This document shows, one piece after another, positions 9,214-23,874 of a stretch of DNA of 59,464 nt. The notes beneath the pieces are model-generated. The model made no database searches. It saw nothing but the letters and a program-made list of their open reading frames with translations, and was not told the origin of the DNA. A program made the position numbers and the translations under genes. Within the stretch, counting starts at the first letter, position 1. Each line of letters starts with the position of its first letter. Source of the stretch: Pirellulales bacterium (lineage in GTDB: Bacteria; Planctomycetota; Planctomycetia; Pirellulales; PALSA-1355); assembly GCA_035496575.1 (NCBI GenBank), contig DATJEN010000073.1, positions 1 through 59,464 on the forward strand, written 5' to 3'.

Positions 9214-10722
9214 ATGTGTAACATGTTCATGAAACGCACGGCAATCTGCCTGTTGGCGTTCGGAGCCCTGGTAATGGGGATCTCGGGCAGCTTCGCGCAA
9301 GTGCCCGCCAACTCCAACCTGGACTATGAGACACCGCAGCCCCGTTATGAAAACGGCAGTGCGCCGTTTGCGGAGTCCGATCCGCGTTCACACAATTCGT
9401 GGCTGCCGTTCAAGCCGGTCGGCGTTCAACCCAGTTGGGATTGGTTCGCTCCGGCGGACACGAGCAGCTATGGCAACGGGCCACGCTCGAAGATTGGTTG
9501 GTTCTTCAGCTTCGAGCGCGTGCTGTGGTCGTTGGGGGCGCCCAAGCCGGCATTGATCGGCGACCCGAACGCCTCTTTCGCTCAACCCTTTATAACGCCC
9601 AGCTCTAGCACCGCCGATACCGGTTTTTTGACGGCCAACCCAGCTTGGGGTAACCGCTGGGAAATCGGGTTCGTCGACAACGACAACTATGGCTGGCTGG
9701 TGAGCGTGCTCGACCATGTCTCGCAAGGCCAGCACAAGGTCTTCGAGAATCCGCTGATTCAGTTCGGCGACCCAAATAATCTGCTCAGCGGTTTTGTGCC
9801 GGCCTTGGATCCGGTAACGGGCGGCATTATCGACGCGGACTTGAACCACAACAATGTCTTCGGACGGTCCGGTCTCGACTTGGGACGTCCGAACCCCGCG
9901 GTGCCTCCGCCGTTCTTCGTACCGCCGCCAGACGGCCATCCCGATACGCCAGCGCCCACCGACAACGGCGATCGCGTGCAGTTTCCGATCATTTTCAACT
10001 TGCTTGACGTTAAAAACATCACGCGCTTGAACGGTATTGAGATCATGCGCATGTACCGGGCCCCGCGGATGCACAATGGTGGCTTCTTCGACGTGCTGTA
10101 TGGTGTTCGCTATTTGCAGATCGACGACACGTTCAAGGTGTTCGGCACCAATACGGTCAATACCGTGATCACCGATATCTTCACGGGAGCCACGACTGGG
10201 ACCACCACCATCGATACCACCAACCCATTGGCCGATAGCGCCTTTTCAATCCGCGCCCAGAACAATGTCGTGGGTCCGCAGATCGGCTTCCGCTATGCAA
10301 ACACCCGCGGCCGCTGGACGAACTCGATGGAAGCCCGTTTCGAGGCCGGTGCCAATTTTCAGAATGTGCATTTGAAATCCTCGCTGGGCAGCCAACTATT
10401 TAACAACCCGACATTCACCACTTCGGTCCAGAACATCTTCGTGGGGAGCAATATCAATCTTTTGCACGGCTTCGGAAGCGACGTGCACGCCCACGCCGTT
10501 ACCTTCTCGCCGGTTGGCGAACTCCGTTTCCAGACGGTGTGCGCGGTCACAAAGAGCGTGGGCCTCAAGTTCGGATACACCGGCCTCGTGGTGGGCAACA
10601 TCACGCGTGCCAGCAATCGTATCGATTATTCCCAAAACAACCTGATTAGCATCACGGGCGGCGGAATCCACCAGCTCTTCTTCTCGAACGGTGTCAACTT
10701 CGGCGTCGAAATCAATCGCTAG
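9214..10722 (+). CDS. outer-membrane beta-barrel protein (BBP7-like, planctomycete type)
   Basis: Signal peptide MKRTAICLLAFGALVMGISGSFAQ, then alternating beta-strand-like segments up to the C-terminal FSNGVNFGVEINR. Possible starts are 9214, 9223 or 9229. Confidence 0.55.
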   Translation: MCNMFMKRTAICLLAFGALVMGISGSFAQVPANSNLDYETPQPRYENGSAPFAESDPRSHNSWLPFKPVGVQPSWDWFAPADTSSYGNGPRSKIGWFFSFERVLWSLGAPKPALIGDPNASFAQPFITPSSSTADTGFLTANPAWGNRWEIGFVDNDNYGWLVSVLDHVSQGQHKVFENPLIQFGDPNNLLSGFVPALDPVTGGIIDADLNHNNVFGRSGLDLGRPNPAVPPPFFVPPPDGHPDTPAPTDNGDRVQFPIIFNLLDVKNITRLNGIEIMRMYRAPRMHNGGFFDVLYGVRYLQIDDTFKVFGTNTVNTVITDIFTGATTGTTTIDTTNPLADSAFSIRAQNNVVGPQIGFRYANTRGRWTNSMEARFEAGANFQNVHLKSSLGSQLFNNPTFTTSVQNIFVGSNINLLHGFGSDVHAHAVTFSPVGELRFQTVCAVTKSVGLKFGYTGLVVGNITRASNRIDYSQNNLISITGGGIHQLFFSNGVNFGVEINR

Positions 10723-10800: not shown

Positions 10801-10853
10801 GAATCATCCCGCATTGGAAGTTGCCGTGGACAAATCGCGGCCGTCTCCTCCCC

Positions 10854-11828
10854 ATGCTGACTCTGGTAACCGGCGCGACCGGCCTGCTGGGCAATAACGT
10901 CGTGCGCCACTTGCTCGCGGACGGACATTCGGTACGCGTGTTGGCGCGAGGGCAATCCGATCCGCGGCCGCTGGCGGGATTAAACGTCGACGTCGCCCGC
11001 GGCGACATCTGCGATCGCGACGCCGTGGTTCGTGCCATGGCGGGCATCGAGCTCGTGATCCATGCCGCCGGACACGTGCACATTGGCTGGACGGGTTTAG
11101 CCACGAGCCGCTTCATCAACGTTGAAGGCACGCGAAACCTGGCCGAAGCGGCCTTGGACCAGCGCGCTTGTTTCGTGCACGTATCGAGCCTCGATGCGCT
11201 TGGGCTGCCGGCGGCCGGGTGCACCGCCGACGAAGAAACGGCGCCCGTGGGAGGCGTGCTATGCCCGTATGTCGTCACCAAGCGCGAGGCCGAGCAGGTG
11301 GTGCTAGCTCTGGCGGACAAAGGGCTCGACGCACGCATCGTGAACCCAGGTTTTATGATCGGCCCCAATGACTGGAAGCCTTCCTCGGGTCGTATGCTGC
11401 TGCATGTCGCCAAAGGTTGGGGATTGTGGGCTCCCCTGGGCTCGAACAGCTACTGCGACGTGCGCGACGTGGCCTCTGGCATCATGGCTGCCGTTGAACG
11501 CGGCAGGCAGGGCCGGCGGTACATCCTGGCCGGCGAAGTCCTCAGCTACTTTCAAGCGTGGCGAGTGTTTGCCGAGGTGACGGGCGGCACGCCACCCGTG
11601 TTTCCGGCCGGTCCACTGGTTCGGATCGGCGCGGGCGCGTTTGGCGATCTGATGGCGCGCGTGACCGGCCGCGAACCAGACGTGAACTCGGCAGCCACGG
11701 CGATCTCGGCGCAAAAGCGCAACTTCTCGAGCCAGCGCGCGCGAGACGAGCTCGATTACCGGCTACGACCCTTGCGGCAAGCCGCCGCCGATGCCTGGGC
11801 CTGGTTCCGCGCGAATGGCTACGTGTAG
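10854..11828 (+). CDS. NAD-dependent epimerase/dehydratase-family SDR reductase
   Basis: Trimmed to ATG 10854 (MLTLVTGATGLLGNNVV Rossmann motif). Catalytic YxxxK is present in PYVVTKREAE. About 324 aa. Confidence 0.85.
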   Translation: MLTLVTGATGLLGNNVVRHLLADGHSVRVLARGQSDPRPLAGLNVDVARGDICDRDAVVRAMAGIELVIHAAGHVHIGWTGLATSRFINVEGTRNLAEAALDQRACFVHVSSLDALGLPAAGCTADEETAPVGGVLCPYVVTKREAEQVVLALADKGLDARIVNPGFMIGPNDWKPSSGRMLLHVAKGWGLWAPLGSNSYCDVRDVASGIMAAVERGRQGRRYILAGEVLSYFQAWRVFAEVTGGTPPVFPAGPLVRIGAGAFGDLMARVTGREPDVNSAATAISAQKRNFSSQRARDELDYRLRPLRQAAADAWAWFRANGYV

Positions 11829-11831
11829 CTG

Positions 11832-14800
11832 CTAGACTCGGCGGCTTGCGTGATAAGTTTCGGCCGCGGGCGCTGCGTGCACGTCATCGCCATGACCGTT
11901 GGCGCTCCGCGAGTGCTGGAGGTACGCCGGGTTGATTTTTTCGAGCTCTTCGCTCACGGCCTCAACCGTATCGCGAATCTGCGCTTCGCTGTGCTCGGAG
12001 GTGACGAAGAATCGCAGCCGAGCGGCTTTCTCCTCCACGGCCGGATGCAGAATCGGCTGCACATTGATCCCGCGCTCGAACAAGGCCTGCGACAAACGTA
12101 AGCAGTCGGTCGAATTGCCCAAGATGACCGGCACCACGGCGGTGCCATGGCTCATGCCCGTGTTCAGGCCGCGTTGGCGAGCCAGCGTCAGGAACAGCTC
12201 GGCACGGGCGCGCAGGCGGGCCACGCGCTCGGGCTCATCTTCGATCAGCCGCAGCGCGGCAAGCGCGGCGGCCGCGTTCGATGGACTGATACCCGCCGCG
12301 AAGACAAAGCTGGGCGCCGTATACTTCAGGTATTCAACCAGCGTGCGGCTGCCCGCGATGTAACCGCCGCAGCTTCCGAACGCCTTGCTCAACGTGCCCA
12401 TCCAGATATCGACGTCGCGCGTCGAAACGTCGAAGTGCTCGCCGATTCCACGGCCGGTCGCTCCCAGCACGCCGATGGAGTGGGCTTCGTCGACATACAG
12501 CAAGGCCTTGTGCCGTTTCTTCACTTCGATGAACTGCGGCAAATCGGCGATATCGCCGTCCATGCTATAAACGCCTTCGATGGCGATCACCACACGGCGG
12601 TAAGCCGGCCGTAACTCAGCGAGCAGCTTGTCGAGCGCCGCCCAGTCGTTGTGCGGGAAAGCACGTCGCCGAGCGCCCGAGAGCATGGCGCCCTGCAAGA
12701 TGCTGTTATGGGCCAGCGCATCGTGAAGGATCAGATCGCCTGGCCCGAACAAATGCCCCAGCGTGCCTTCATTCGTGCTGTGCCCGCCCACGAACATCAG
12801 GGCGGCCTCCACGTCCAAAAATCTCGCGAGGGCCTGCTCGAACTCGAGGTGGATGGTCTTCTCGCCGGAAACCAGGCGGCTAGCCGACACGCTTGTGCCG
12901 TAGCGGTCGATGGCGCGTTTGGCGGCGGTCTTCACGCGAGGATCACCGGAGGCACCGATGTAGTTGTAGCTGGCGAAGCTCACCATCTCGCGGCCGCCGA
13001 TTTGCGTCGTGTCGTTGATGATCCGTTCGTGAACTTTGAAGAACGGATTCATGAACCCGGCGCCCGTGATCTCCTCCATCTGTTGCTTGAGCCGTAAATA
13101 CTCGGGGAAGCACTCGATGCGGTAGCTCTCGGGCGGAACTTCGCGGGGGGCCTCGCGATGATCGCGCGCATGGGGCGTGGGGCCGAGATACGCCTCGACC
13201 GCGGCCGCCACCTCGCGACAGCTCTCGATCTGAGGCAGCACGTCCTCGGGAAATCGGCCGCCGTAGGTCTCTTCGAGCGACGCGATGATTTCCATGCGCT
13301 CGAGCGAGTCGAGGCCAAGCTCGACAATCGAACTATCGAGTGTCAGGCCAACCGCGCGCTCCTTGGCCACCCGCCGCACGTGCTCCATCACGATTTCCGC
13401 CGTGCTGGCACTGGCCAATGGCTTGCGTGGCGCTTCGCTGGCCGGGACGGTGACGCGCCGCTCGCGAGTCGCCGCGATCTCGGTTGGCGTGGCCGGCTGA
13501 GCGGCTTCCCAGCTCTTCCACTCGGCCACGATGTCCAGCGCGCCGTCCAGGAAAGCTTGTTTGCAGGCGTGTCGTTGAATTTTTCCGCTCGAGGTCTTGG
13601 GAATACTGCCGGCTTTGATCAGAACGACGGCCTCGAGCTGCAGCTCGTGCTCGCTGGCGACCTCTTTGCGGATGACATCGAAAACGCCGTCGAGCTCGCG
13701 CTGCTGACGCCGTTCAATCTCGTGCACGATAACCAGCCGGTCGGTGCTGCCGATCTCGACCGTAAACGCCGCGCCATTGCCCGGTCGCAAGCGCGGATGC
13801 GACCTTCCGACCGTCAATTCGATGTCTTGGGGATAGTGGTTCAGCCCGCGAATGATGATCAGGTCCTTGAGGCGACCGGTGATGAAGAGCTCGCCATCCT
13901 TCATGAAGCCCAAATCGCCGGTGCGCAAAAACGGACCCTCTCCGGTGTCTTTCAGGTAGGCGCGGAAGGTGCGATCGGTTTCTTCCGCCCGATTCCAATA
14001 CCCTTGCGCTACGCTGGGCCCGCACACCCACACTTCGCCGACATGATCCGTGGGAACCGCCAGCATTTTGTCCGGGTCGGCGATCACGATCCGTTCGTCG
14101 AGCAAGTTGCCACCGCTGCCCACGAGTTCGCGAGCGCCCTCTTCGTCAGCCAGCGCGTCGAGGACCTGGTTCGATTCGAGCGCCAGGGCATCGAACGTGC
14201 GCACCACCGGAGGCGCGGCTTTGAATCCACCGGAGACAATCAGCGTCGACTCGGCCATCCCATAGCAGGGATAGAACGCCTCGCGGCGGAAGCCAACCGG
14301 CTCGAACATCTTCGTGAATTGGTCGATCGTGTCGGCGCGCACCGGCTCGGCGCCATTGAACGCCAGGCACCAATTGCTGAGATCGAGCGTGGCGAGCTGA
14401 TCGGGCGTGATCTTGCGCACGCACAAGTCGTAAGCGAAGTTGGGGCCGCCGCTGATCGTGCAGCGATATCGCGAAATGGCCTTCAGCCAGCGATACGGTT
14501 TCTGCAGAAACGACATCGGCGACAGCAGCACGTTGGCCTGACCGATATACAAAGGCTGCAGAATCCCGCCGATCAGCCCCATGTCATGGTAGCTGGGCAG
14601 CCAGAACACGCCGCTGCCGCTGCGCGTGTGCTCGAACGCGTAGGCGATCGAGGCCGAGTTGTGCATCAAATTCGAATGATTCAGGATCACGCCCTTGGGC
14701 GTGCCGGTCGAGCCCGACGTGTACTGCAAAAACGCCAAGGTGTCGCCATGCACGTCCGGTTGGCCCCATTCGTTTTCAGAACCGGCGGGCAACTGGTCCG

Positions 14801-15266
14801 TGCACAGCCATGCAATTTGCTTGAGGCTGGGGCTTTGGTCGAGCACCGATTGAACCCGTTCCCACACGGGAAACGTCGTCAGCGCGATCTTGGCTTGTGC
14901 GTCGTCGACAATCGCCTGAATCCGCGATAGCGAGCGGTTCCTTCGCGGAGGATAGGCCGGCACGGCAACCACCCCGGCATATAAGCAACCAAAAAAGGCC
15001 GCGATGAATTCCAGCCCCGCCGGGTACAACAGCAGCGCGCGTTCGCCTTCCAGATCCATGGCCTGCAGGCGGCCCGCCACAGCCCGCGCCTGCCGATCCA
15101 GCTCCTCATAGGTCCAATGAACCTCCTCCGTCTCGCCGTCGACCAGGTACGTAAACGCTCGGTCGTGGGCCTGATGCGCAGCCCGATGCCGGAGCAGGTC
15201 GACCAGGTTCGAGGGTCCGAAAAAGGATCCGGGCAGATGATCGCGGTGCACGTCTGGTGAACTCAC
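11832..15266 (-). CDS. tri-domain fatty acyl-AMP ligase / carrier protein / PLP-dependent alpha-oxoamine synthase (BioF/Spt/Kbl family) fusion
   Basis: 1144 aa with a GTG start at 15266. Adenylation core FLQYTSGSTGTPKGVILNH. Carrier motif LGLDSLERMEI (Ser654, codon 13305-13307). AOS domain with DEAHSIGVLG and GTLSKAFGSCGG (Lys961, codon 12384-12386). Confidence 0.9.
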   Translation of the reverse strand: MSSPDVHRDHLPGSFFGPSNLVDLLRHRAAHQAHDRAFTYLVDGETEEVHWTYEELDRQARAVAGRLQAMDLEGERALLLYPAGLEFIAAFFGCLYAGVVAVPAYPPRRNRSLSRIQAIVDDAQAKIALTTFPVWERVQSVLDQSPSLKQIAWLCTDQLPAGSENEWGQPDVHGDTLAFLQYTSGSTGTPKGVILNHSNLMHNSASIAYAFEHTRSGSGVFWLPSYHDMGLIGGILQPLYIGQANVLLSPMSFLQKPYRWLKAISRYRCTISGGPNFAYDLCVRKITPDQLATLDLSNWCLAFNGAEPVRADTIDQFTKMFEPVGFRREAFYPCYGMAESTLIVSGGFKAAPPVVRTFDALALESNQVLDALADEEGARELVGSGGNLLDERIVIADPDKMLAVPTDHVGEVWVCGPSVAQGYWNRAEETDRTFRAYLKDTGEGPFLRTGDLGFMKDGELFITGRLKDLIIIRGLNHYPQDIELTVGRSHPRLRPGNGAAFTVEIGSTDRLVIVHEIERRQQRELDGVFDVIRKEVASEHELQLEAVVLIKAGSIPKTSSGKIQRHACKQAFLDGALDIVAEWKSWEAAQPATPTEIAATRERRVTVPASEAPRKPLASASTAEIVMEHVRRVAKERAVGLTLDSSIVELGLDSLERMEIIASLEETYGGRFPEDVLPQIESCREVAAAVEAYLGPTPHARDHREAPREVPPESYRIECFPEYLRLKQQMEEITGAGFMNPFFKVHERIINDTTQIGGREMVSFASYNYIGASGDPRVKTAAKRAIDRYGTSVSASRLVSGEKTIHLEFEQALARFLDVEAALMFVGGHSTNEGTLGHLFGPGDLILHDALAHNSILQGAMLSGARRRAFPHNDWAALDKLLAELRPAYRRVVIAIEGVYSMDGDIADLPQFIEVKKRHKALLYVDEAHSIGVLGATGRGIGEHFDVSTRDVDIWMGTLSKAFGSCGGYIAGSRTLVEYLKYTAPSFVFAAGISPSNAAAALAALRLIEDEPERVARLRARAELFLTLARQRGLNTGMSHGTAVVPVILGNSTDCLRLSQALFERGINVQPILHPAVEEKAARLRFFVTSEHSEAQIRDTVEAVSEELEKINPAYLQHSRSANGHGDDVHAAPAAETYHASRRV

Positions 15267-15473
15267 ATCGTGGGACTATGGATAACGCAAGCTGCGCATG
15301 GGCGGCTTATCCCTTAGCATCGGACCGCACACGCCCGAGACCGATTTCTCGTTTCGCGTGGCGTTGCAGCTTTCCAGGGAACCCGGGGAGGTGCTGGCAG
15401 GTGATGTGCGTAGCCCCCTGTCTTGCGGCCGTCAGGCTCGCTCTAACCGAAAAAGTTCAGCATCTTGGACCGA

Positions 15474-15500
15474 TACAAAATACCACGCTTGCCCAGCGTG
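15474..15500 (-). terminator. hairpin plus U-rich tract between the 73-aa gene and the FAAL-fusion gene
   Basis: Minus strand reads CACGCT-gggca-AGCGTG followed by GTATTTTGTA. It lies about 90 nt downstream of the stop at 15588. Confidence 0.4.
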
Positions 15501-15587
15501 TTCAAACCACGGGAAGCGACGTTCGGGCCGGTTTCTTGTGCGAATTGGCAGGGTGGTTTGAGGATCGCACAGTCGGACCCGTGAGGA

Positions 15588-15809
15588 TCAGTTCCAGTCG
15601 AGCCCAGTCAGCTTCTTGATGCGGCTCGTGTAGTCGCCGAGCAGGCCTCCGATGACGCTCCATCCGCCACGTTGCATGAGCTCGATGTCGCCCTGCGGGT
15701 TGATGCGAATTTTGCTGTCGTCTTTGACACCGGCGGCGCGAAGCTGCCTGACCTCATTCTCGTCGGTGAGCTTGAGCAACGTGGCGCCGTTGATTTCGAC
15801 GAATTTCAT
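15588..15809 (-). CDS. small conserved hypothetical protein (73 aa)
   Basis: MKFVEINGATLLKLTDENEVRQLRAAGVKDDSKIRINPQGDIELMQRGGWSVIGG... has a clean ATG and balanced composition. I recognise no family. Confidence 0.55.
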   Translation of the reverse strand: MKFVEINGATLLKLTDENEVRQLRAAGVKDDSKIRINPQGDIELMQRGGWSVIGGLLGDYTSRIKKLTGLDWN

Positions 15810-15901
15810 GGATGACTCACGTCGTGATGGAACGCGAAAACTTGTGGCCCATCATAACCAACTCGCGCGCTGAATTGAATCATCGGCCCTAAATGGCCCG
15901 C

Positions 15902-16807
15902 TCACTCGGTCATGATTCGAACGGCGTGGCTGAGCTTGATAATGGTGTCCACGTCCAATTGCTCGGCGCGCAGCTCGGGCGAAATTTGATTTTCGGCCAA
16001 TAGGCGGTCGATCGCTCCCTTGTCGAGGCGCTCCTTTAGCCCCGCATGCAGCTCGCCGCGCAGCAGCTTGCGGCGGTGCAAGAACAGCGAGCGCACGAAA
16101 TCGTGAAAGAATTGCAGGTCGCCAATTCGGCCGCGCAGGGCGGGATCGATCTCGATGCGCACGATGGCCGACGTCACCTGGGGGCGTGGCCAGAATACGC
16201 TGGGCGGCAAAACGCGAACCAGCTCCACGCGGGATTGGCTTTGGATCCATACGCTCAGCGCGCCGTAATCCCGCGTATCCGGTCTCGCGGTCATGCGATC
16301 CGCCAACTCCTTCTGAATGGTGACCGTCATGCTGTGCGGCGCTGGCTCGTGAAGAAGCAAGTTCGCGATCACCGGAGTGGCCACGCTATACGGCAGGTTT
16401 GCAACCAGCTTCAGCCGGCGCCCCGGCGCGGCGCGCACTTGGCGCTCGACCTCCTCGATCACGCGCGGATCGATCTGGCTTTTGCTGCGCAGCACGTCCT
16501 GCGCAAGCATGAACACGTTTTCGTGTCCGAATAGTTCCTCGGAGGCGATCTGCCGCAACTGCGGGTCGATTTCAACTGTGACGATGGCCGCAGCCAGGGG
16601 CGCCATCAGCGCCGATAGAGCGCCGGTTCCAGTGCCCACCTCGAGCACGACGTCGGTGGATTCCAACTTCGCGCGCTCGACAATCAAACGCTGCAGATTC
16701 AGATCGATGAGAAAATTCTGCCCGTGCCGTCGATTCAGCCGCACTCCGGCCTCGGAAAAGCGGCGCGCCAAATACGAAATCGTCTGGTGGTCGGGAGAGC
16801 CGGGCAT
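15902..16807 (-). CDS. rsmA: 16S rRNA (adenine1518-N6/adenine1519-N6)-dimethyltransferase
   Basis: HGQNFLIDLNL, the SAM motif VLEVGTGTGALS and NLPYSVATP are KsgA/RsmA signatures. Confidence 0.9.
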   Translation of the reverse strand: MPGSPDHQTISYLARRFSEAGVRLNRRHGQNFLIDLNLQRLIVERAKLESTDVVLEVGTGTGALSALMAPLAAAIVTVEIDPQLRQIASEELFGHENVFMLAQDVLRSKSQIDPRVIEEVERQVRAAPGRRLKLVANLPYSVATPVIANLLLHEPAPHSMTVTIQKELADRMTARPDTRDYGALSVWIQSQSRVELVRVLPPSVFWPRPQVTSAIVRIEIDPALRGRIGDLQFFHDFVRSLFLHRRKLLRGELHAGLKERLDKGAIDRLLAENQISPELRAEQLDVDTIIKLSHAVRIMTE

Positions 16808-16857
16808 TGGAGTTGCCTACCGCGCGGTGCTGGGATGACGCATTCCGCGCCGCAATC

Positions 16858-17457
16858 TCAATGGGGTGCGTCCTGGTCAAGCTGCTTCTGCGCATATTTG
16901 GCCAAGAGATCCGTCTCCAGGTTCACCTTGGCGCCCGGCGCGAGTGATCCCAGCGTGGTCATCTCCAACGTGTGAGGGATCAAGGCGACGCTGAAGCTAT
17001 CGGCGTTCACGTCCACAAGGGTCAGGCTCACCCCATCCACTGCAATCGAGCCCTTGGGCGCCAGGTAGCGGCCCAACTCCCGCGGATACTCAAACCAAAA
17101 TGTCGACCATTCGCGGTCATCCTGGCGCTTGAACAAGCGACCGAGCCCTTCGACGTGTCCGCTGACAAAGTGACCGCCGAGGCGGTCCCCCACGCGCAAC
17201 GAGGGTTCCAGGTTGACACGTGATTCGGCCCGTAATTCGCCCAGATTCGTGCGGCTGAGCGTCTCGGGCCCCACCTCGAAAGCCAAGACCTGGCCCGCTT
17301 GCTCGACGATTGTCAGGCAGCAACCATTCACCGCGATACTGTCTCCCAGTTTCGCGTCGGCGGCAACCAGCGGGGCATGTAATTCGATCCGCGCGCCCGG
17401 TCCTTCGCGCGTGATCGCGCGCAAGGTGCCCAGCTCTTGCACAAGCCCTGTGAACAT
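16858..17457 (-). CDS. ribE: riboflavin synthase alpha chain
   Basis: Begins MFTGLVQELGTL and has the duplicated barrel (GDSIAVNGCCLT / GSIAVDGVSLT). 199 aa. Confidence 0.9.
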   Translation of the reverse strand: MFTGLVQELGTLRAITREGPGARIELHAPLVAADAKLGDSIAVNGCCLTIVEQAGQVLAFEVGPETLSRTNLGELRAESRVNLEPSLRVGDRLGGHFVSGHVEGLGRLFKRQDDREWSTFWFEYPRELGRYLAPKGSIAVDGVSLTLVDVNADSFSVALIPHTLEMTTLGSLAPGAKVNLETDLLAKYAQKQLDQDAPH

Positions 17458-17477
17458 GCGCGTGCTCCGCGGGACGG

Positions 17478-18347
17478 TCAGAAAATGGGATCGTGTGCTG
17501 CGCGGCGGTAAAACACACGTTGCGCCGCATAGCGCAGCGGAGCGGCCAGCACGAAGATGCAGCCGATGATCGGACCCGAGTAGCCCCGAATCGACATGAT
17601 GGCCACGAACGCGAACACCAGCGCCACAATATGTCCAAAGCTCCGCTGACCGCGCAACACCTGGTTCACCACGTGCGGGTAAGGAATACGCGAGACCATG
17701 AGTAGCGCCACCAGAAGCGCGAAAAACGGCAGGATGGTTTGCACCCAGGTGTCGATCTCTTCCGCGTACATCAATGTCGCGCCCTCGCGGCGCAGCTCAT
17801 AGAACAAGATGGCGAATCCGGCGATCGATGCGGCGGCGGCGGGCGAGGGCAATCCACTGAAGTTCATGTGGTCGTCTTCTTCGCCCGACTCGACATTGAA
17901 CCGCGCCAGGCGCAATGCCGCGCAGGCGGCAAACGCCGCGGCAATCAGCCAGATCTTGTCGTGCGAATAGGTGAAGCTCGGACACATTTTCACTAACAAG
18001 AACCCGGGCGCCACCCCGAACGATACCACGTCGCATAAGCTGTCGAGCTGCGCGCCAAAATCGGAGCTGCTGCGGGACAGCCGGGCCACGTGGCCATCCA
18101 ACGCGTCAAAGATCATGGCCAGAAAAATCAGCCAGCCGCTGAGCATGATATTGTGCGTGTCATTAGTTGGATCGAGTTGCTTCATGACTCGCGTCGGGTT
18201 CTTGAAGACGATGTCCACCGCTTGAGGCGGTTCCAGCGAGGTGGGCCGTTCGACGCGCGCAGCGACCACAATGGCAAAAAAGCCACAGATCAGGTTGGCC
18301 AACGTAAAAACCGTGGGGAAGACGGCGACGGTGCGAATTTTGTTCAT
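17478..18347 (-). CDS. pssA: CDP-diacylglycerol--serine O-phosphatidyltransferase
   Basis: CDP-alcohol phosphatidyltransferase motif DALDGHVARLSRSSSDFGAQLDSLCD in a polytopic membrane profile. Its ATG overlaps the psd stop (ATGA at 18344-18347). Confidence 0.9.
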   Translation of the reverse strand: MNKIRTVAVFPTVFTLANLICGFFAIVVAARVERPTSLEPPQAVDIVFKNPTRVMKQLDPTNDTHNIMLSGWLIFLAMIFDALDGHVARLSRSSSDFGAQLDSLCDVVSFGVAPGFLLVKMCPSFTYSHDKIWLIAAAFAACAALRLARFNVESGEEDDHMNFSGLPSPAAAASIAGFAILFYELRREGATLMYAEEIDTWVQTILPFFALLVALLMVSRIPYPHVVNQVLRGQRSFGHIVALVFAFVAIMSIRGYSGPIIGCIFVLAAPLRYAAQRVFYRRAAHDPIF

Positions 18348-19327
18348 GCGTGTGTCGGCTCAGACTCCCCCAATGAATGCTTGTAGCTGGCCAGAATCGT
18401 ACTGCCGGCCTTCACTTTCTCGTCCGCGAGCACTCGAATCTCCAGGGATGGATCGTCCGGACAAATCAGCTCCGTCCGCGAGCCCAGCTTGATCATCCCG
18501 AATTTGTGTCCGCATGCAATGCGTTCGTCACTACGCAAATTGCACACAATGCGGCGGGCGAATAATCCAGCGATCTGGCGGACCACCAGCCGGCGATGCG
18601 GCGGATCAAGCTCCTCCAGCCCAATCCACAGATTCTCGTTTCTGAGCGTGCTCTCGGGATTGAGTGCGTTCAAGAATTGCCCCGGAGAATATCGCAATCG
18701 AAGGACCCGGGCAGCCGCAGGTGAGCGATTGACGTGTACGTTGAAAATCGAAAGAAAAATACCGATGCGGACGGCCGGACCGCCGATGAATTCGTCGTGC
18801 TCGAGCCGCGTGATCTCGGCGATGACTCCGTCGGCAGGTGAGACGAGTAGGCCCGGCTCGCTCGGCACCCGCCGCGGCGGATCGCGGAAAAACCAAACTA
18901 CCAGCCCACACACGACAAGCGGCGGCACGGCCAGCAGCCAGTGAAACCACCCGCCCAATACGGCAATCGCAATGAGCGGATAGCTCATCAATTGCAATTC
19001 GGCCAGGCCCCAGCGGGCAAACGGCAATCGCTGGCGCCAGCGAAACGGGTCATCCCGTTCGTCCCAGTCGCAATCGCATACGTTTCGGCAGTACTTGAGA
19101 TCGCGGGGATCGAGGATTGGGTGGGGAGCACCCTCGGTCGAACCATGCCGGAGCGCCGCCATTCGCCGAACATAGCCCGCTCGGAATGTCCGCAAGTACC
19201 CGCGACGCAACCGGCCCCAGGCCAATTCAATTCGGTAACATGCACCACCGCCGGGCTGCACGCTGCGCAAATTCTGCGGAAGCGGCTCGGCCTCAAGGCA
19301 CGGGGAAGTGGGTTCGACTTTGGTCAT
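18344..19327 (-). CDS. psd: phosphatidylserine decarboxylase (short Psd type) with an approximately 113-aa N-terminal extension
   Basis: The core reads LLVSPADGVIAEI...IFLSIFNVHVNRSP...MIKLGSRTE. The N-terminal 113 aa (18989..19327) are basic and Cys-containing and look coding by codon pattern. Confidence 0.8.
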   Translation of the reverse strand: MTKVEPTSPCLEAEPLPQNLRSVQPGGGACYRIELAWGRLRRGYLRTFRAGYVRRMAALRHGSTEGAPHPILDPRDLKYCRNVCDCDWDERDDPFRWRQRLPFARWGLAELQLMSYPLIAIAVLGGWFHWLLAVPPLVVCGLVVWFFRDPPRRVPSEPGLLVSPADGVIAEITRLEHDEFIGGPAVRIGIFLSIFNVHVNRSPAAARVLRLRYSPGQFLNALNPESTLRNENLWIGLEELDPPHRRLVVRQIAGLFARRIVCNLRSDERIACGHKFGMIKLGSRTELICPDDPSLEIRVLADEKVKAGSTILASYKHSLGESEPTHA

Positions 19328-19498
19328 TTCTCGCTCATTCTCGCGGGTCGGCTACGTCAATCCTACCTGCCCCCCATTGCATTGAGAAGGAAAGCAGCCG
19401 CTCAACACGCCTTAGGGGCGACCGAGGGGCATGCCGCAGCCCGAGCATCTGGCATATACTGAGGGAATCTTTGCACTGTGAAACGTTGATCTATTGCC

Positions 19499-20596
19499 AT
19501 GCGCGAGCTCGTTCATCAATTGTTTGGCGCAAGTGACGCTGGCCGACGTGTCGCTTGTTGTCGGCTCGTTGAGACGCGCGGATCGACGCCACAAAAGCCC
19601 GGCGCCGCCATGCTGGTTTTCGAAGATGGCTCGCAGGCCGGCACCCTGGGCGGTGGTTGCGTGGAAGCCGAGGTCAAGCGACAGGCCCTCGCCACCCTTT
19701 CAAGCCGCAGCGCGTCGGTCGTTACCTTCCAACTGGATGACGATTACGGCTGGGATGACGGGCTGATTTGCGGCGGTCGGATGCAAGTGCTCATCGACCC
19801 GCTGGCAGAGTCCAGCGATCGCGACTATTACTCGATAGTTCAGCGGCTCGCCGACCAAGGCGCAGGCCTGACCGAAGCCATTGTGTTCGACACCGAGGCG
19901 AGCGGACTGCCCGCCGGCGCTACGTACATGTTCGATGAAGCAGGTGAGCTGTTGGCACATGTGCGCGGCCCCCTTGAAGGAGGCGCGCCGCCCCATGCGG
20001 TTCGCGCTGGCGTCGTGCCGCTTACTACCCGTCCGCGACCTTCCGCCGCGCACGGAGTTGCCTATCTGCCTTTGTTGCCTCGCTGCCGGTTGTTGATCGT
20101 CGGCGGCGGGCACGTCGGGCAGGCGGTCGCCGGTTTAGCCGCGGAGCTGGAGTTCGACGTGTGGGTCGTCGATGATCGCGCCGAATATGTGACCGAGGCC
20201 CGCTTCCCAAGCGCCGAGCGTCGCATTTCGGGCATCATTGGCGAGATTCTGCCGTCGATCGAAGTGACTCCCAACACCTACTGCTTGATTGTGACGCGCG
20301 GCCACAATCACGATGAAGAAGCGCTCTATCACCTCGTCGATCGTGGCGCCCGTTACGTGGGCATGATCGGCAGCAAGCGCAAGATTAAGCTGATTTTCGA
20401 CGACTTGCTGTCCGAGGGCATCTCGCGCGAGCTTTTGAACCAGGTCTACGCGCCAGTCGGCTTAGATATCGGATCGCAAACGGTCATGGAGATCGCTGTC
20501 AGCATCACCGCCGAGCTCGTGGCCCACCGGAACCTGGGCGTGGCCGGCAATCACACTCGCAAGCGGCAGTTGGCACACAGCGGCCTGTCCACATAG
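19499..20596 (+). CDS. XdhC/CoxI-family molybdenum-cofactor insertion accessory protein
   Basis: N-terminal XdhC_CoxI-like block (ETRGSTPQKPGAAMLV, GTLGGGCVE) plus a Rossmann-like XdhC_C block (LLIVGGGHVGQAVA, YVGMIGSKRK). Confidence 0.85.
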   Translation: MRELVHQLFGASDAGRRVACCRLVETRGSTPQKPGAAMLVFEDGSQAGTLGGGCVEAEVKRQALATLSSRSASVVTFQLDDDYGWDDGLICGGRMQVLIDPLAESSDRDYYSIVQRLADQGAGLTEAIVFDTEASGLPAGATYMFDEAGELLAHVRGPLEGGAPPHAVRAGVVPLTTRPRPSAAHGVAYLPLLPRCRLLIVGGGHVGQAVAGLAAELEFDVWVVDDRAEYVTEARFPSAERRISGIIGEILPSIEVTPNTYCLIVTRGHNHDEEALYHLVDRGARYVGMIGSKRKIKLIFDDLLSEGISRELLNQVYAPVGLDIGSQTVMEIAVSITAELVAHRNLGVAGNHTRKRQLAHSGLST

Positions 20597-20652
20597 CACG
20601 CCATTCATTTTCAGTTGGCCCGCCACTCGCGCTTGCCTAACGAGTAATCGAC

Positions 20653-21267
20653 ATGCAGAGCTTCGGGATCGTTCCGGCCGCTGGTCGCAGCAGTCGCATG
20701 GGAACTCCGAAGTTGCTTTTGCCTTGGGGGGATGAGACGCTCATCGCGAGCGTTTTGCAGGCTTGGCGCTCGAGCCGCGTCGCTCGCGTGGTGGCCGTCG
20801 TTCATCCGGAAGACGACGAACTTGCGCGTGTGTGCACTCGCGCGGGGGTCGAGGTCGTGCAGCCGGCAACTCCGCCGCCGGACATGAAAGCTTCGGTTCG
20901 CGCGGCGCTTGCGCATTTGCAGAAACTAAAGCCAGATCACGAAGATGCGTGGCTGGTCGCACCGGCTGATATCCCCGGCATCACGGCCGAGCGGATCGAC
21001 ACGATGATCGCAGCGTACGAATCGGACGCTCGCGATCGCCCAGCGCACGCTGATCTGTGGGTGCCGGTCCATGATGGCCGGCGAGGTCATCCCCTCCTCG
21101 GCCAGTGGGGCATCGCTCGTGCGCTCGACGATTTGAGCGAGAACGAGGGGGTCAGCGCGCTATTCGAGCGGCTGCGCGTGCAAGAGGTAGAGCTGCCGGC
21201 AGCACCACTCGACGACGTGGACACGCCCGCCGATTACGAGAGGCTGCGCCCCGGCCAATCAGGGTGA
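20653..21267 (+). CDS. MobA-like NTP transferase (molybdenum cofactor cytidylyltransferase MocA-like)
   Basis: GIVPAAGRSSRMGTPKLLLPW is the N-terminal signature of the MobA/MocA family. 204 aa. Confidence 0.8.
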   Translation: MQSFGIVPAAGRSSRMGTPKLLLPWGDETLIASVLQAWRSSRVARVVAVVHPEDDELARVCTRAGVEVVQPATPPPDMKASVRAALAHLQKLKPDHEDAWLVAPADIPGITAERIDTMIAAYESDARDRPAHADLWVPVHDGRRGHPLLGQWGIARALDDLSENEGVSALFERLRVQEVELPAAPLDDVDTPADYERLRPGQSG

Positions 21268-21345
21268 TTACGGGCGGCGACCCTTTTCTCGATCTCACGC
21301 CGCTCATACCTTTAAGACAAGAAACGGGTCGAGCCGGAACGGACG

Positions 21346-23874
21346 ATGATGAGGCGATCTTTGAAGATGCGGTGCACCTGGCGCGCGGCCTGGCTTGCCC
21401 TGGCGGCGTGCGCCGCGATTTGCCCACGAGGCGCACTGGCTGCGGATCCTGCTCCCAGCAACGGGAGTAATATCAGCCCGAGCAACAGCAAGGTGCCGCC
21501 CAGGCCAAAGCCGCCTTTTGAAACCTTCCGCGTTTTTTCCGAGCCCAACGAAAAATCTTTTACCGATCCAAAGGCCAAAGACGGCGGGCGAATCGTTCAG
21601 GCCATCAAGCCCAATCATTGGGCGAACGTGCTGGTGGAAACGAAAGCCAACCAGTTCGACTTCACGGGCACGCTGATTTCCGCGGCCCTCGATAGCCAAC
21701 AGCGGCCGATTCCTCTCGAGCGCAATTCGTTTTCTTTGGCGACCGAGCGCGCGGCTTCACTTCCCAAGGGCCAGCGGAAGTCGATGGAGGCGTTAGTGTT
21801 TCCTGCGCGTTCGCGGCACACGACGACCCAGGTTTCAAACCGGCTGGAAACAGCGCAACACGTCGACGATTCGCCTGCTTATGGCGACACGCTGTCGCAC
21901 ATGCCGAGTTATCAATATTTCATGCTCGTGTTGGCGCGAGACCCCGATCGCTACCGGTATTTGAAGTTGCTCGACAGTGTTCGCTCGCGCGGCATCTCCA
22001 ATGCCCAAAGTCTCGATGAGGCGGCGTTCTACCGGCTCATCATGCCGCCCACCAATCTGCCGCTGGCTCTGCCCTCGCACCCGCTTTGTTGGACGACGAT
22101 CGCGGTTCTGTTGTGGGATGACGTTCCCTCTGGCGCAGTGGGGTCCGACCAGGAGCAATCGCTGATCGATTGGCTGCACTGGGGCGGCACATTGGTCGTG
22201 AGTGGGCCGCATTCGCTGGATACTCTGCGCGGGACAGCCCTGGCGTCCTACCTGCCTGCCACGTCGCTCGGCACTCGTCCGCTCGATGCGACGGCGCTTG
22301 CCGAGCTGAGTTCGAGGTGGACGGTTGCGAATGCGCAGGGTGAGCGGACGGAGCTTGCGCCCGCCGCAGCCTGGTCCGGAGTGGAATGGAACAAGGACCT
22401 TGCCGCCGAGTTTGTCCCAGGCACCGGCAACCTGGTGGTCGAACGCAGGGTCGGGCGCGGCAGAATCGTATGCACGAGCTTTGCCTTGAGCGAGCCTGAG
22501 CTGTGGCAATGGCCGAGCTACGACAGCTTTTTTAATGGCGCGATCTTGCGCCGTCCGCAGCGCACGTTCGATCCTGTCACAGGCGGATTCCGGCTGGTCG
22601 AAGGAGACACGTTCGACCCGGCACTCGTCACCAAGGTGCGATATTTGAGTCGAGATGCCATCGACCCGCACGCGGACGAAACCGTTCCGCTTCGGATGGC
22701 CCTCGACATCGGGCCACAAGGACCCGCCTGGCTGTCGCCGCGTCGCGATGAGGCCAGCGGCCGCGAGGGGCTTCTGCGACTGGATCAGGCTGACCTCTAC
22801 AAGACGGAGCCGGGCGTGGCCGCCTGGAATGATTTCAGCGGCGTCTCCTCGGCGGCGCGACTCACGCTGCGGGAAGCGGCCGGCATCACCGTCCCCAATC
22901 GACGCTTTGTGTTGTGGATGCTGGGCGTGTACTTGATCGCCATCGTGCCGCTCAATTGGCTGTTCTTTCGTTTGCTGGGACATGTGGAATGGGCCTGGTT
23001 TGCAGTGCCCATTTTCGCGGTGGGTTGGGGCGGCGCGGTGATCTGGCTGGCCCAGTTGGACATTGGCTTCGCCCGCTCGCAAACGGAAGTGGATGTGCTG
23101 GAGCTGCACAACGGCTACTCGCGCGCGCATCTGACGCGTTATGCCGCGTTGTATAGTTCGCTGTCTTCGAGCTATGACGTGCAGTTCGACAGCCGCTCGG
23201 CCGTGGCCCAGCCCTTCTCGCCGGATGTCGAGTTGCTAAAAGACCAGGGCGTTTCGACCGTCGTCCTGCAATCGGGCGACGAGCCGCACTTGCGCAGCTT
23301 TCCTGTGTCGTCAAACGCTACCGGAATGTTGCACACAGAAGAAATGTTCGAGCTCGATGGCCCGCTCGTGCTGAGCGAATCGGCCGATCAATTGTTGCTT
23401 GAAAACCGCACGGGCTTTGCACTCTCGGGCGCGGCGATCTTGCGCCGCGGCCAGGACGAGGATCAAGTCGCAGGCGAGGTGGCATGGTTGGGTGAAGTTG
23501 GCGCTGGAGCAACTCGCGAGGTGCTTTTCGAGCCATATCGGGCACGAGTCCTGCAGCGGGCGCGGGCCTCGAACAGCCTGACCGCCTCGCGCCGACTGGA
23601 AGGCTCGCTGAGCCTGCTGCGGCTGCTACGATGTACTGAAGATCTCGCGGCGCTCGAGCCCGGCGAAGTCCGGCTCGTGGCCTGGTACGATGGCGCCATG
23701 GAAGGCATGCACATCGAGCCTTCCGCACCGCAGGCCCGGCGCGCCACACTTGTGATTGCGCATCTGGGTTTTGCGCCCTTGGAACCGCCCGCGCCCGACC
23801 TTAGCTTGCGCGTCGATAGTCCGCGCAGACCGGCAGTGGACGAGCCAGCGGCCCCCATTGAGGCCACGCCATGA
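21346..23874 (+). CDS. large exported membrane-anchored protein (842 aa), unknown function, possibly GldG/ABC-accessory-like
   Basis: Signal peptide (WRAAWLALAACAAICPRGALA). Two adjacent TM helices (FVLWMLGVYLIAIVPLNWLFF, WAWFAVPIFAVGWGGAVIWLAQL). A LIDWLHWGGTLVVSGPHSL block resembles class-I amidotransferase-like accessory domains. The stop overlaps the next ATG. Confidence 0.7.
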   Translation: MMRRSLKMRCTWRAAWLALAACAAICPRGALAADPAPSNGSNISPSNSKVPPRPKPPFETFRVFSEPNEKSFTDPKAKDGGRIVQAIKPNHWANVLVETKANQFDFTGTLISAALDSQQRPIPLERNSFSLATERAASLPKGQRKSMEALVFPARSRHTTTQVSNRLETAQHVDDSPAYGDTLSHMPSYQYFMLVLARDPDRYRYLKLLDSVRSRGISNAQSLDEAAFYRLIMPPTNLPLALPSHPLCWTTIAVLLWDDVPSGAVGSDQEQSLIDWLHWGGTLVVSGPHSLDTLRGTALASYLPATSLGTRPLDATALAELSSRWTVANAQGERTELAPAAAWSGVEWNKDLAAEFVPGTGNLVVERRVGRGRIVCTSFALSEPELWQWPSYDSFFNGAILRRPQRTFDPVTGGFRLVEGDTFDPALVTKVRYLSRDAIDPHADETVPLRMALDIGPQGPAWLSPRRDEASGREGLLRLDQADLYKTEPGVAAWNDFSGVSSAARLTLREAAGITVPNRRFVLWMLGVYLIAIVPLNWLFFRLLGHVEWAWFAVPIFAVGWGGAVIWLAQLDIGFARSQTEVDVLELHNGYSRAHLTRYAALYSSLSSSYDVQFDSRSAVAQPFSPDVELLKDQGVSTVVLQSGDEPHLRSFPVSSNATGMLHTEEMFELDGPLVLSESADQLLLENRTGFALSGAAILRRGQDEDQVAGEVAWLGEVGAGATREVLFEPYRARVLQRARASNSLTASRRLEGSLSLLRLLRCTEDLAALEPGEVRLVAWYDGAMEGMHIEPSAPQARRATLVIAHLGFAPLEPPAPDLSLRVDSPRRPAVDEPAAPIEATP

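Follow-up and report, generated by a model that had tools for sequence, protein, structure and literature searches.

A fused fatty acyl-AMP ligase, carrier protein and alpha-oxoamine synthase of Pirellulales is a candidate long-chain-base synthase linked to a putative reductase

The window analysed here, a 59-kb stretch of DNA from a soil planctomycete of the order Pirellulales, carries a gene in which a predicted fatty acyl-AMP ligase (FAAL), an acyl carrier protein (ACP) and an alpha-oxoamine synthase (AOS) dependent on pyridoxal phosphate (PLP) are joined in a single polypeptide, next to the gene for a short-chain dehydrogenase/reductase (SDR). Probably the fusion is an Spt-like long-chain-base synthase complete in itself, which unites the equivalents of AasR, AcpR and Spt. 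Because relatives keep reductase and ceramide-synthase-like genes beside it, the locus is a credible route to ceramide-like lipids in Planctomycetota. It is a variant of an already known type of system, well supported by comparative genomics and not conceptually new. The features concerned are as follows.

11832 to 15266, minus strand: FAAL-ACP-AOS tri-domain gene, from the open reading frame (ORF) call (1144 aa), Pfam domains and homologues
13527 to 15191, minus strand: FAAL domain, residues 26-580 (N-terminal part 26-424, C-terminal subdomain 468-580), from Pfam, NCBIfam, Protein Data Bank (PDB) matches and a diagnostic insertion
13197 to 13391, minus strand: carrier (ACP/PP-binding) domain, from Pfam, with the phosphopantetheine site Ser654 (codon 13305-13307)
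11958 to 12989, minus strand: PLP-dependent AOS domain, from Pfam, with the Schiff-base Lys961 (codon 12384-12386)
10854 to 11828, plus strand: extended (epimerase/3-beta-HSD-type) SDR of 324 aa, candidate ketoreductase of the pathway, from Pfam (Epimerase, E 2e-31)

The original prediction had claimed three domains in one 1144-aa ORF, and this is borne out. Pfam gives AMP-binding (residues 26-424, E 1e-62), AMP-dom_DIP2-like (the C-terminal subdomain, 468-580), PP-binding (626-690, 37 bits against a cutoff of 20.8) and Aminotran_1_2 (760-1103, E 5e-50), all four above their gathering scores. The motifs and active-site codons are also as predicted: FLQYTSGSTGTPKGVILNH lies at residue 179 of the adenylating domain, LGLDSLERMEI holds Ser654 of the carrier domain, and the AOS domain has DEAHSIGVLG at residue 926 and GTLSKAFGSCGG, which holds Lys961. 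No ketosynthase (KS), acyltransferase (AT) or condensation domain is present in the fusion, for which Pfam gives just AMP-binding (with its C-terminal subdomain), PP-binding and Aminotran_1_2. Since the N-termini of homologues align to residue 6, a GTG at 15251 five codons into the ORF, the protein is probably 1139 aa long. A 590-aa ORF antisense to the fusion (13158-14930, plus strand) is a by-product of high G+C and nothing suggests that it is a gene.

The fusion is widely conserved. More than 120 protein clusters match it over the full length (63-94% identity) with the same architecture, and at the level of 50% clusters there are dozens more tri-domain representatives together with longer relatives. 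Among species-representative genomes 571 stretches were confirmed by scanning, and the 80 best were examined as loci (L numbers below denote these and further loci, P numbers protein representatives). The 80 are full-length genes in Planctomycetota, mostly Pirellulales, and include an orthologue in Blastopirellula marina DSM 3645 (L053) that is 59% identical to the fusion. In Pirellulales the fusion mostly stands alone amid housekeeping genes and is a conserved single gene, apparently vertically inherited.

Residue conservation was taken from an alignment of 121 homologues. In the FAAL domain TSGSTGxPKG and the A10 Lys are invariant, as are T183, K191 and K562; Ser654 of the carrier domain is present in 121 of 121 sequences; and in the AOS domain His853, Asp926, His929 and Lys961 are invariant and Arg1085 is found in 120. 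Mean identity is 69-78% in the three domains (78% in the carrier domain) compared with 23-55% in the linkers (23% in the one preceding the carrier domain). All three domains are therefore under purifying selection.

Two long-read metagenome-assembled genomes (MAGs) sharing the synteny of the window have the fusion broken into several called genes (L095, 11121-14235; L096, 9144-11093), which could be due to frameshift errors or to pseudogenisation. A metagenomic representative of 2624 aa (P0121) is a double module, in which another FAAL-ACP and a class-III aminotransferase domain come after FAAL-ACP-AOS.

The characterised counterpart is the ceramide set of Caulobacter and E. coli B, which comprises AasR (a FAAL-type acyl-ACP synthetase), AcpR, Spt, the SDR 'epi' and the N-acyltransferase 'aca'/YghO (PMC9386255). 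AasR loads AcpR only, and Spt favours acyl-AcpR (PMC9386255). In E. coli BL21(DE3) the cluster runs yghO, fatty acyl-AMP ligase, epimerase-family SDR, ACP and spt. The logic and the protein families of this AasR-AcpR-Spt-'epi' (CerR-type)-YghO (bCerS-type) system (Olea-Ozuna 2021; Padilla-Gomez 2022; Stankeviciute 2022) match those predicted here: a FAAL places a free fatty acid on a dedicated carrier, condensation with an amino acid falls to an enzyme of the AOS family, and there is linkage to genes for an epimerase-family SDR and for an acyltransferase like YghO. Here the linkage concerns the SDR in the window, both genes in L104 and in L059, and the YghO-like gene for L099 and L002. Unlike in Caulobacter and E. 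coli B, the first three proteins form one polypeptide in the window, the AOS domain lies outside the Spt clade and below the Spt cutoffs, identities are 25-34% and the window has no acyltransferase. The suggestion that the first three activities of the ceramide pathway sit in one polypeptide, with the SDR as possible reductase, thus agrees with the domains, gene fusions and linkage described below.

The architecture itself was catalogued in 2013 as 'A-CP-PLP2 (AOS)', including Blastopirellula marina A3ZWL3, with substrate and product given as '?' (Milano et al., PMC3870968). Those proteins have the same family and architecture as the fusion and nothing structural differs; in contrast to the present analysis, that catalogue offers homology models without function, genomic context or a link to SDR and acyltransferase genes. 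The original prediction had been aware of no characterised product for this architecture in Planctomycetota, and likewise no biochemical or genetic characterisation of any FAAL-ACP-AOS protein was found in the literature.

The N-terminal domain is predicted to be a FAAL and not an acyl-CoA ligase. An insertion in the N-terminal domain separates FAALs from acyl-CoA ligases (PMC8460268). Such an insertion, proposed as a check on the original prediction, was found: about 26 residues more than in E. coli FadD, between YGMAES...VSGG and VGSGG, in all five aligned members of the fusion family. NCBIfam models favour FAALs (PRK05850, 463 bits; FadD32, 426 bits) over the acyl-CoA ligases PRK06187 (165) and FadD (128). 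The domain falls under every curated FAAL subfamily cutoff (scores/cutoffs 463/775, 430/922, 393/600 and 426/975) and so belongs to no curated subfamily, whereas AasR of E. coli B passes PRK09192 (870/600). Its top PDB matches are all FAALs, among them 7R7E (671 bits, about 60% identity) and E. coli FAAL 3PBK (277 bits), and it is 34% identical over 538 aa to the 'fatty acyl-AMP ligase' of the E. coli BL21 spt cluster. The likeness to the FAAL loading domain of a polyketide synthase (PKS) from Picosynechococcus sp. PCC 7002 (PDB 7R7E/F/G) runs end to end and includes the insertion region. That PKS, which we take to be an olefin synthase, differs in that its FAAL feeds a KS and the FAAL of the fusion does not. 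A 2025 review of FAALs lists the substrate of 7R7E, the FAAL domain of the Picosynechococcus PCC 7002 PKS, as unknown, and makes no mention of AOS or PLP partners (PMC11837247). The fused carrier domain with its invariant Ser654 is consistent with acyl transfer to holo-ACP.

The AOS domain reaches the cutoff of none of the curated AOS models. Its highest-scoring NCBIfam model is BioF (TIGR00858, 355.7 against a cutoff of 426.45); Kbl (303/460), ALAS (263/339) and a CqsA-type model (165/428) score lower, and all are below cutoff. A neighbour-joining tree with 100 bootstraps was built. Its references, drawn from annotated database records and from PDB alignments, are BioF of E. coli and Sinorhizobium, Kbl of E. 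coli and Ralstonia, Sinorhizobium ALAS, Thermus AONS/KBL and a small number of Spts, namely Sphingomonas SPTs and a Roseomonas Spt. The AOS domain falls in a clade of carrier-protein-dependent AOSs (94/100), which contains other tri-domain proteins, the C-terminal AOS domains of PKSs and stand-alone AOSs beside large PKSs, with BioF, Kbl, ALAS and the known Spts outside. A few other tri-domain proteins, for example one from Anaerolineae, cluster with true Spts, so the fusion arose around more than one AOS lineage.

His853, Asp926, His929, Lys961 and Arg1085 align with the catalytic residues of SPT, BioF and Kbl (PLP fold type I). Val79 of ThAOS has been shown experimentally to determine amino-acid selectivity (PMC11906848). 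Its equivalent in the fusion is Ser796, invariant among the 121 homologues; SPT and BioF have Ser at this position, Kbl has Val and ALAS has Thr. Sharing this Ser with SPT and BioF is a weak argument against a glycine-only enzyme and for a substrate with a side chain. Both usual partners of Spt, an ACP and a FAAL-type acyl-ACP synthetase, are fused to the AOS domain according to Pfam. Serine is a plausible amino-acid substrate.

The SDR was predicted as a convergent neighbour 3 nt from the stop codon of the fusion, and ORF and Pfam analysis confirm it. It has the motifs TGATGLLG (TGxxGxxG) and YVVTK (YxxxK) and matches Pfam Epimerase and 3Beta_HSD. The mechanical ORF starts at a TTG at 10821; with the ATG at 10854 the protein has 324 aa, as do nearly all homologues. 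Its best NCBIfam match is HpnA (230 bits), with SdmB (168 bits) and OleD among the next. As the 'epi' SDR of E. coli B has the same NCBIfam profile (HpnA, OleD, SdmB), an 'HpnA-like' label does not speak against a role in a ceramide pathway.

Adjacency of the SDR and the fusion had been proposed for testing across Pirellulales. It does not hold for the order, since among the 80 species loci the SDR adjoins the fusion in L001 and L047 and lies near it in L059, which at first looked refuting. It does hold in the sub-clade of the window, where the order BBP7 (described below), SDR and convergent fusion is kept in L093, L095, L096 and L104. In addition, orthologues of the SDR (63-95% identity) and of the fusion occur together on one contig at least 23 times, and some of these contigs measure only 5-15 kb. 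Four representatives have an SDR domain directly after the AOS: P0135 is FAAL-(ACP)-AOS-SDR, and P0140, P0136 and P0174 are longer and end in AOS-SDR; these domains are 30-36% identical to the SDR of the window. In L098 an SDR of the window type lies 7 nt downstream of the tri-domain gene on the same strand. These shared contigs, independent fusions and operon-like linkage reversed the first impression, and together with the adjacency in the sub-clade they support a link between reductase and fusion at the level of gene organisation.

In L100 (7001-15444) the tri-domain gene heads a co-directional string, with a gene of the FA_hydroxylase family and a classical (adh_short) SDR behind it. Convergent to this string are genes for a nonribosomal peptide synthetase (NRPS) condensation protein and for an A-PCP protein. 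The string looks like an operon for a hydroxylated long-chain base, possibly one feeding the NRPS.

The last gene family of the ceramide pathway is found in relatives. Searching all loci with E. coli YghO revealed full-length homologues beside tri-domain genes. In L059 a YghO-like gene is 59 nt downstream of the fusion and is followed by a convergent SDR; in L099 one is 38 nt upstream of the fusion; and in L002 one is 8 kb away. The order in L104 is BBP7, SDR, YghO-like gene, convergent fusion and a 73-aa ORF, which is the locus of the window plus the acyltransferase. The fusion and SDR of L104 are 70 and 65% identical to those of the window, its YghO-like protein is 35% identical to EcYghO (E 3e-86), and 80 nt separate its SDR gene from the co-directional YghO-like gene downstream. 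L093 retains, between SDR and fusion, a 79-aa N-terminal remnant of a YghO-like gene (13375-13605, minus strand; 61% identity), which overlaps the extended 3' end of a 1196-aa fusion ORF. The remnant speaks for deletion of the acyltransferase from the locus in some lineages. YghO-like proteins are widespread in Pirellulales.

The YghO-like gene of L002 heads a psd-pssA-ribE-rsmA string (15279-22486). In the window pssA and psd (phosphatidylserine synthase and decarboxylase; 17478-19327, minus strand) precede ribE, rsmA and the fusion in the same direction of transcription. Together with the YghO-like gene, this context hints at a membrane-lipid neighbourhood.

A pathway can be proposed from these features, in which each chemical step, as well as chain length, amino acid and final lipid, is inferred. 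The FAAL domain would adenylate a free long-chain fatty acid, and the acyl group would pass to the phosphopantetheine on Ser654 of the protein's own carrier, a phosphopantetheinyl transferase being needed in trans. With no KS or AT in the fusion, the fatty acid would be used unextended. The amino acid would be bound by the AOS domain as an external aldimine with the PLP of Lys961, and decarboxylative Claisen condensation with the acyl-S-carrier would give a long-chain 2-amino-3-ketoalkane, which would be 3-ketosphinganine if the amino acid were serine. The neighbouring extended SDR may then reduce the 3-keto group, before or after the base is N-acylated. In relatives the in-locus YghO/bCerS-like enzyme would N-acylate the base to a dihydroceramide-like lipid.

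Several observations weigh against the Spt-like reading and its extension to ceramides. The AOS domain scores far below the Spt models (CFB 315/640, BetaP 279/500, AlphaP 225/670), which Roseomonas Spt (613/500) and E. coli B Spt (599/500) pass as controls. By pairwise score it is equally close to Kbl and Spt. The Sphingomonas and Roseomonas Spts form their own 100% clade without it, and the deep nodes of the tree are weak (33-59% bootstrap). Because the domain lies outside the known Spt clade and under the Spt cutoffs, serine is put no higher than plausible. On the reductase side, besides the sparse adjacency among the 80 loci, the SDR has a weak likeness to 'epi' of E. coli B (30% over 210 aa, E 2e-14). 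It lies about 0.5 Mb from a fusion relative of 72% identity in L092/L094, and being convergent it is not co-transcribed with the fusion. No YghO-like gene or remnant was found anywhere in the 59-kb window, as the original prediction had noted for ceramide-synthase-like acyltransferases. No report of sphingolipid lipidomics in cultured Pirellulales was found in the literature.

The same enzymology might instead yield a small diffusible or specialised metabolite and not a membrane sphingoid lipid: an alpha-amino or alpha-hydroxy ketone signal of the CqsA/LqsA type, or an alkaloid or aminolipid natural product, with the SDR and acyltransferase as tailoring enzymes. AOSs are known at the ends of PKS assembly lines or beside PKSs, as in prodiginine (RedL/PigH) and saxitoxin (SxtA) synthesis. 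The PKS-terminal and PKS-adjacent AOSs met here (P0136 and P0174, which are FAAL-ACP-KS-AT-AOS-SDR; L081 and L082) share the 94% clade with the window AOS at 47-61% identity, and like it they would take a carrier-tethered acyl chain in cis or in trans and off-load it as an amino ketone. The fusion differs from them in having no KS or AT, which makes it a minimal load-and-condense module. Its clustering with these AOSs, the NRPS genes adjoining the tri-domain gene of L100 and the PKS loading domain as closest structure to the FAAL all favour a metabolite. This origin is nevertheless unlikely, since the fusion is a single, highly conserved and apparently vertically inherited gene among housekeeping genes, atypical of secondary-metabolite clusters; the genes linked to it are of the two ceramide-synthesis families; and the CqsA model scores just 165 against a cutoff of 428.

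In L081 (1353-10206, a Pseudomonas plasmid) and L082 (1289-10266, a 3.5-Mb Sinorhizobium replicon) a PKS of about 2500 aa, fully reducing (KS-AT-DH-ER-KR-ACP), is followed by a stand-alone AOS that is 57% (L081) or 47% (L082) identical to the AOS domain of the window. The pair in L081 adjoins capsule-type, GNAT, LTA-synthase and SDR genes.

It is more improbable still that the fusion makes a long-chain amino ketone and the SDR is unrelated to it, for example a triterpenoid enzyme of the HpnA/SdmB type whose adjacency is lineage-specific synteny. The HpnA and SdmB matches, the convergent orientation, the lack of an SDR beside the fusion in about 77 of the 80 species loci and the distance in L092/L094 would all fit an unrelated enzyme. 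Against this, the characterised sphingolipid SDR of E. coli B has the same HpnA/OleD/SdmB profile, SDR domains of the window type are fused behind the AOS in four representatives, the SDR of L098 is co-directional with the fusion, and in L104 the orthologous SDR gene precedes, and is co-directional with, the YghO-like one. The parts of the window that were scanned yielded no hopanoid or sterol genes.

Biotin synthesis, in which the FAAL would activate pimelate on the carrier and the AOS, as a BioF, would make 8-amino-7-oxononanoate, is highly improbable even though BioF is the top AOS model and homologues bear the JGI name '8-amino-7-oxononanoate synthase': the score is under the BioF cutoff, the domain lies outside the EcBioF and SnBioF pair and in the 94% clade with PKS-linked AOSs, no bioA, bioD or bioC is near the fusion in the 80 loci (bioB is in two, 7-8 kb off), the linked SDR and N-acyltransferase have no role in biotin synthesis, and the FAAL domain shares about 60% identity with the fatty-acid loading domain of a PKS. 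Nesting of the AOS domain inside BioF, named at the outset as part of the outcome that would point to biotin, was thus not seen, and in view of phylogeny, model cutoffs and neighbours this role was rejected. A natural fusion of an acid-activating enzyme with an AOS does exist in BioWF, a pimeloyl-CoA synthetase/AONS, and lends the idea some support; going by its description, BioWF is set apart by its CoA dependence, the lack of a carrier domain, another family of activating enzyme and its place in biotin synthesis (PMC9544090). The database name '8-amino-7-oxononanoate synthase' is very probably wrong for the fusion family.

To return to a long-chain-base synthase, a tentative and rather improbable elaboration is that the amino acid is not serine or the chain not C16-C18, that the products are planctomycete-specific long-chain-base or ceramide-like lipids of the outer membrane, and that the neighbouring BBP7 protein is a dedicated partner in their placement or transport. 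On this view the lineage of the window, whose locus no longer has the N-acyltransferase, might build up free amino alcohol or find some other way to acylate it.

To our knowledge, bacterial sphingolipid synthesis has been worked out in just a few Proteobacteria and Bacteroidota. Planctomycetota were named as potential sphingolipid producers from metagenomic homology only (Ding et al. 2024). That study reported Spt-like proteins in 138 Planctomycetota MAGs, some of the matches being parts of longer proteins, and defined its Spt-like clade by co-localisation with CerR and bCerS (Ding et al. 2024). Pirellulales now have a concrete and testable gene set consisting of the fusion, a candidate reductase and, in relatives, a bCerS-like acyltransferase. 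As predicted, the fusion would make a long-chain-base precursor from a free fatty acid and an amino acid in one polypeptide, and its orthologues in cultured strains such as Blastopirellula marina DSM 3645 make the prediction directly testable. If true, an enzyme that loads, tethers and condenses would be a handy biocatalyst for amino ketones and alcohols from free fatty acids, with no need for acyl-CoA.

Three further features flank the SDR and fusion genes.

9214 to 10722, plus strand: BBP7-family predicted outer-membrane beta-barrel, from Pfam (BBP7, E 2e-14), the most conserved neighbour of the fusion
15477 to 15505, minus strand: promoter-like TTGAAC-N17-TATTTT with TG one base before the -10 hexamer, from sequence, with a hairpin as its spacer
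15591 to 15809, minus strand: 73-aa ORF upstream of the fusion, with homologues at the same place in relatives

In 25 of 60 species loci the fusion is followed within 2.5 kb by a convergent BBP7-like ORF, and BBP7 also flanks the locus in L093, L095, L096, L101 and L104. A role for BBP7 in handling the lipid product is conceivable.

The hairpin and U-tract claimed upstream of the fusion exist (15484-15500), and their reading as a terminator was rejected. The region has three terminator-like sites compared with 4.7 expected in shuffles, the fold energy is at chance level (z = 0.06 against shuffles), the stem is not conserved and the hairpin overlaps the promoter-like motif. L001 keeps the hexamers of that motif, equally far from the start, and L010 keeps them in part; the stem is not kept. 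Motifs of this class occur in 6 of 79 upstream regions compared with 0.7 in shuffles, and the stretch at 15477-15505 reads as a putative sigma-70-like promoter. Whether taken as terminator or promoter, either fits separate transcription of the fusion. A riboswitch or other RNA upstream was considered and rejected: at gathering scores Rfam matches nothing in the window, and 15200-15950 gave no match even at E ≤ 1.

The 73-aa ORF has no Pfam match. Homologues lie upstream of the fusion in L092, L093, L096 and L104 (73 aa), in L095 (71 aa) and in Blastopirellula marina (L053); they occur in 8 of the 80 species loci, and the copy in L104 is 56% identical.

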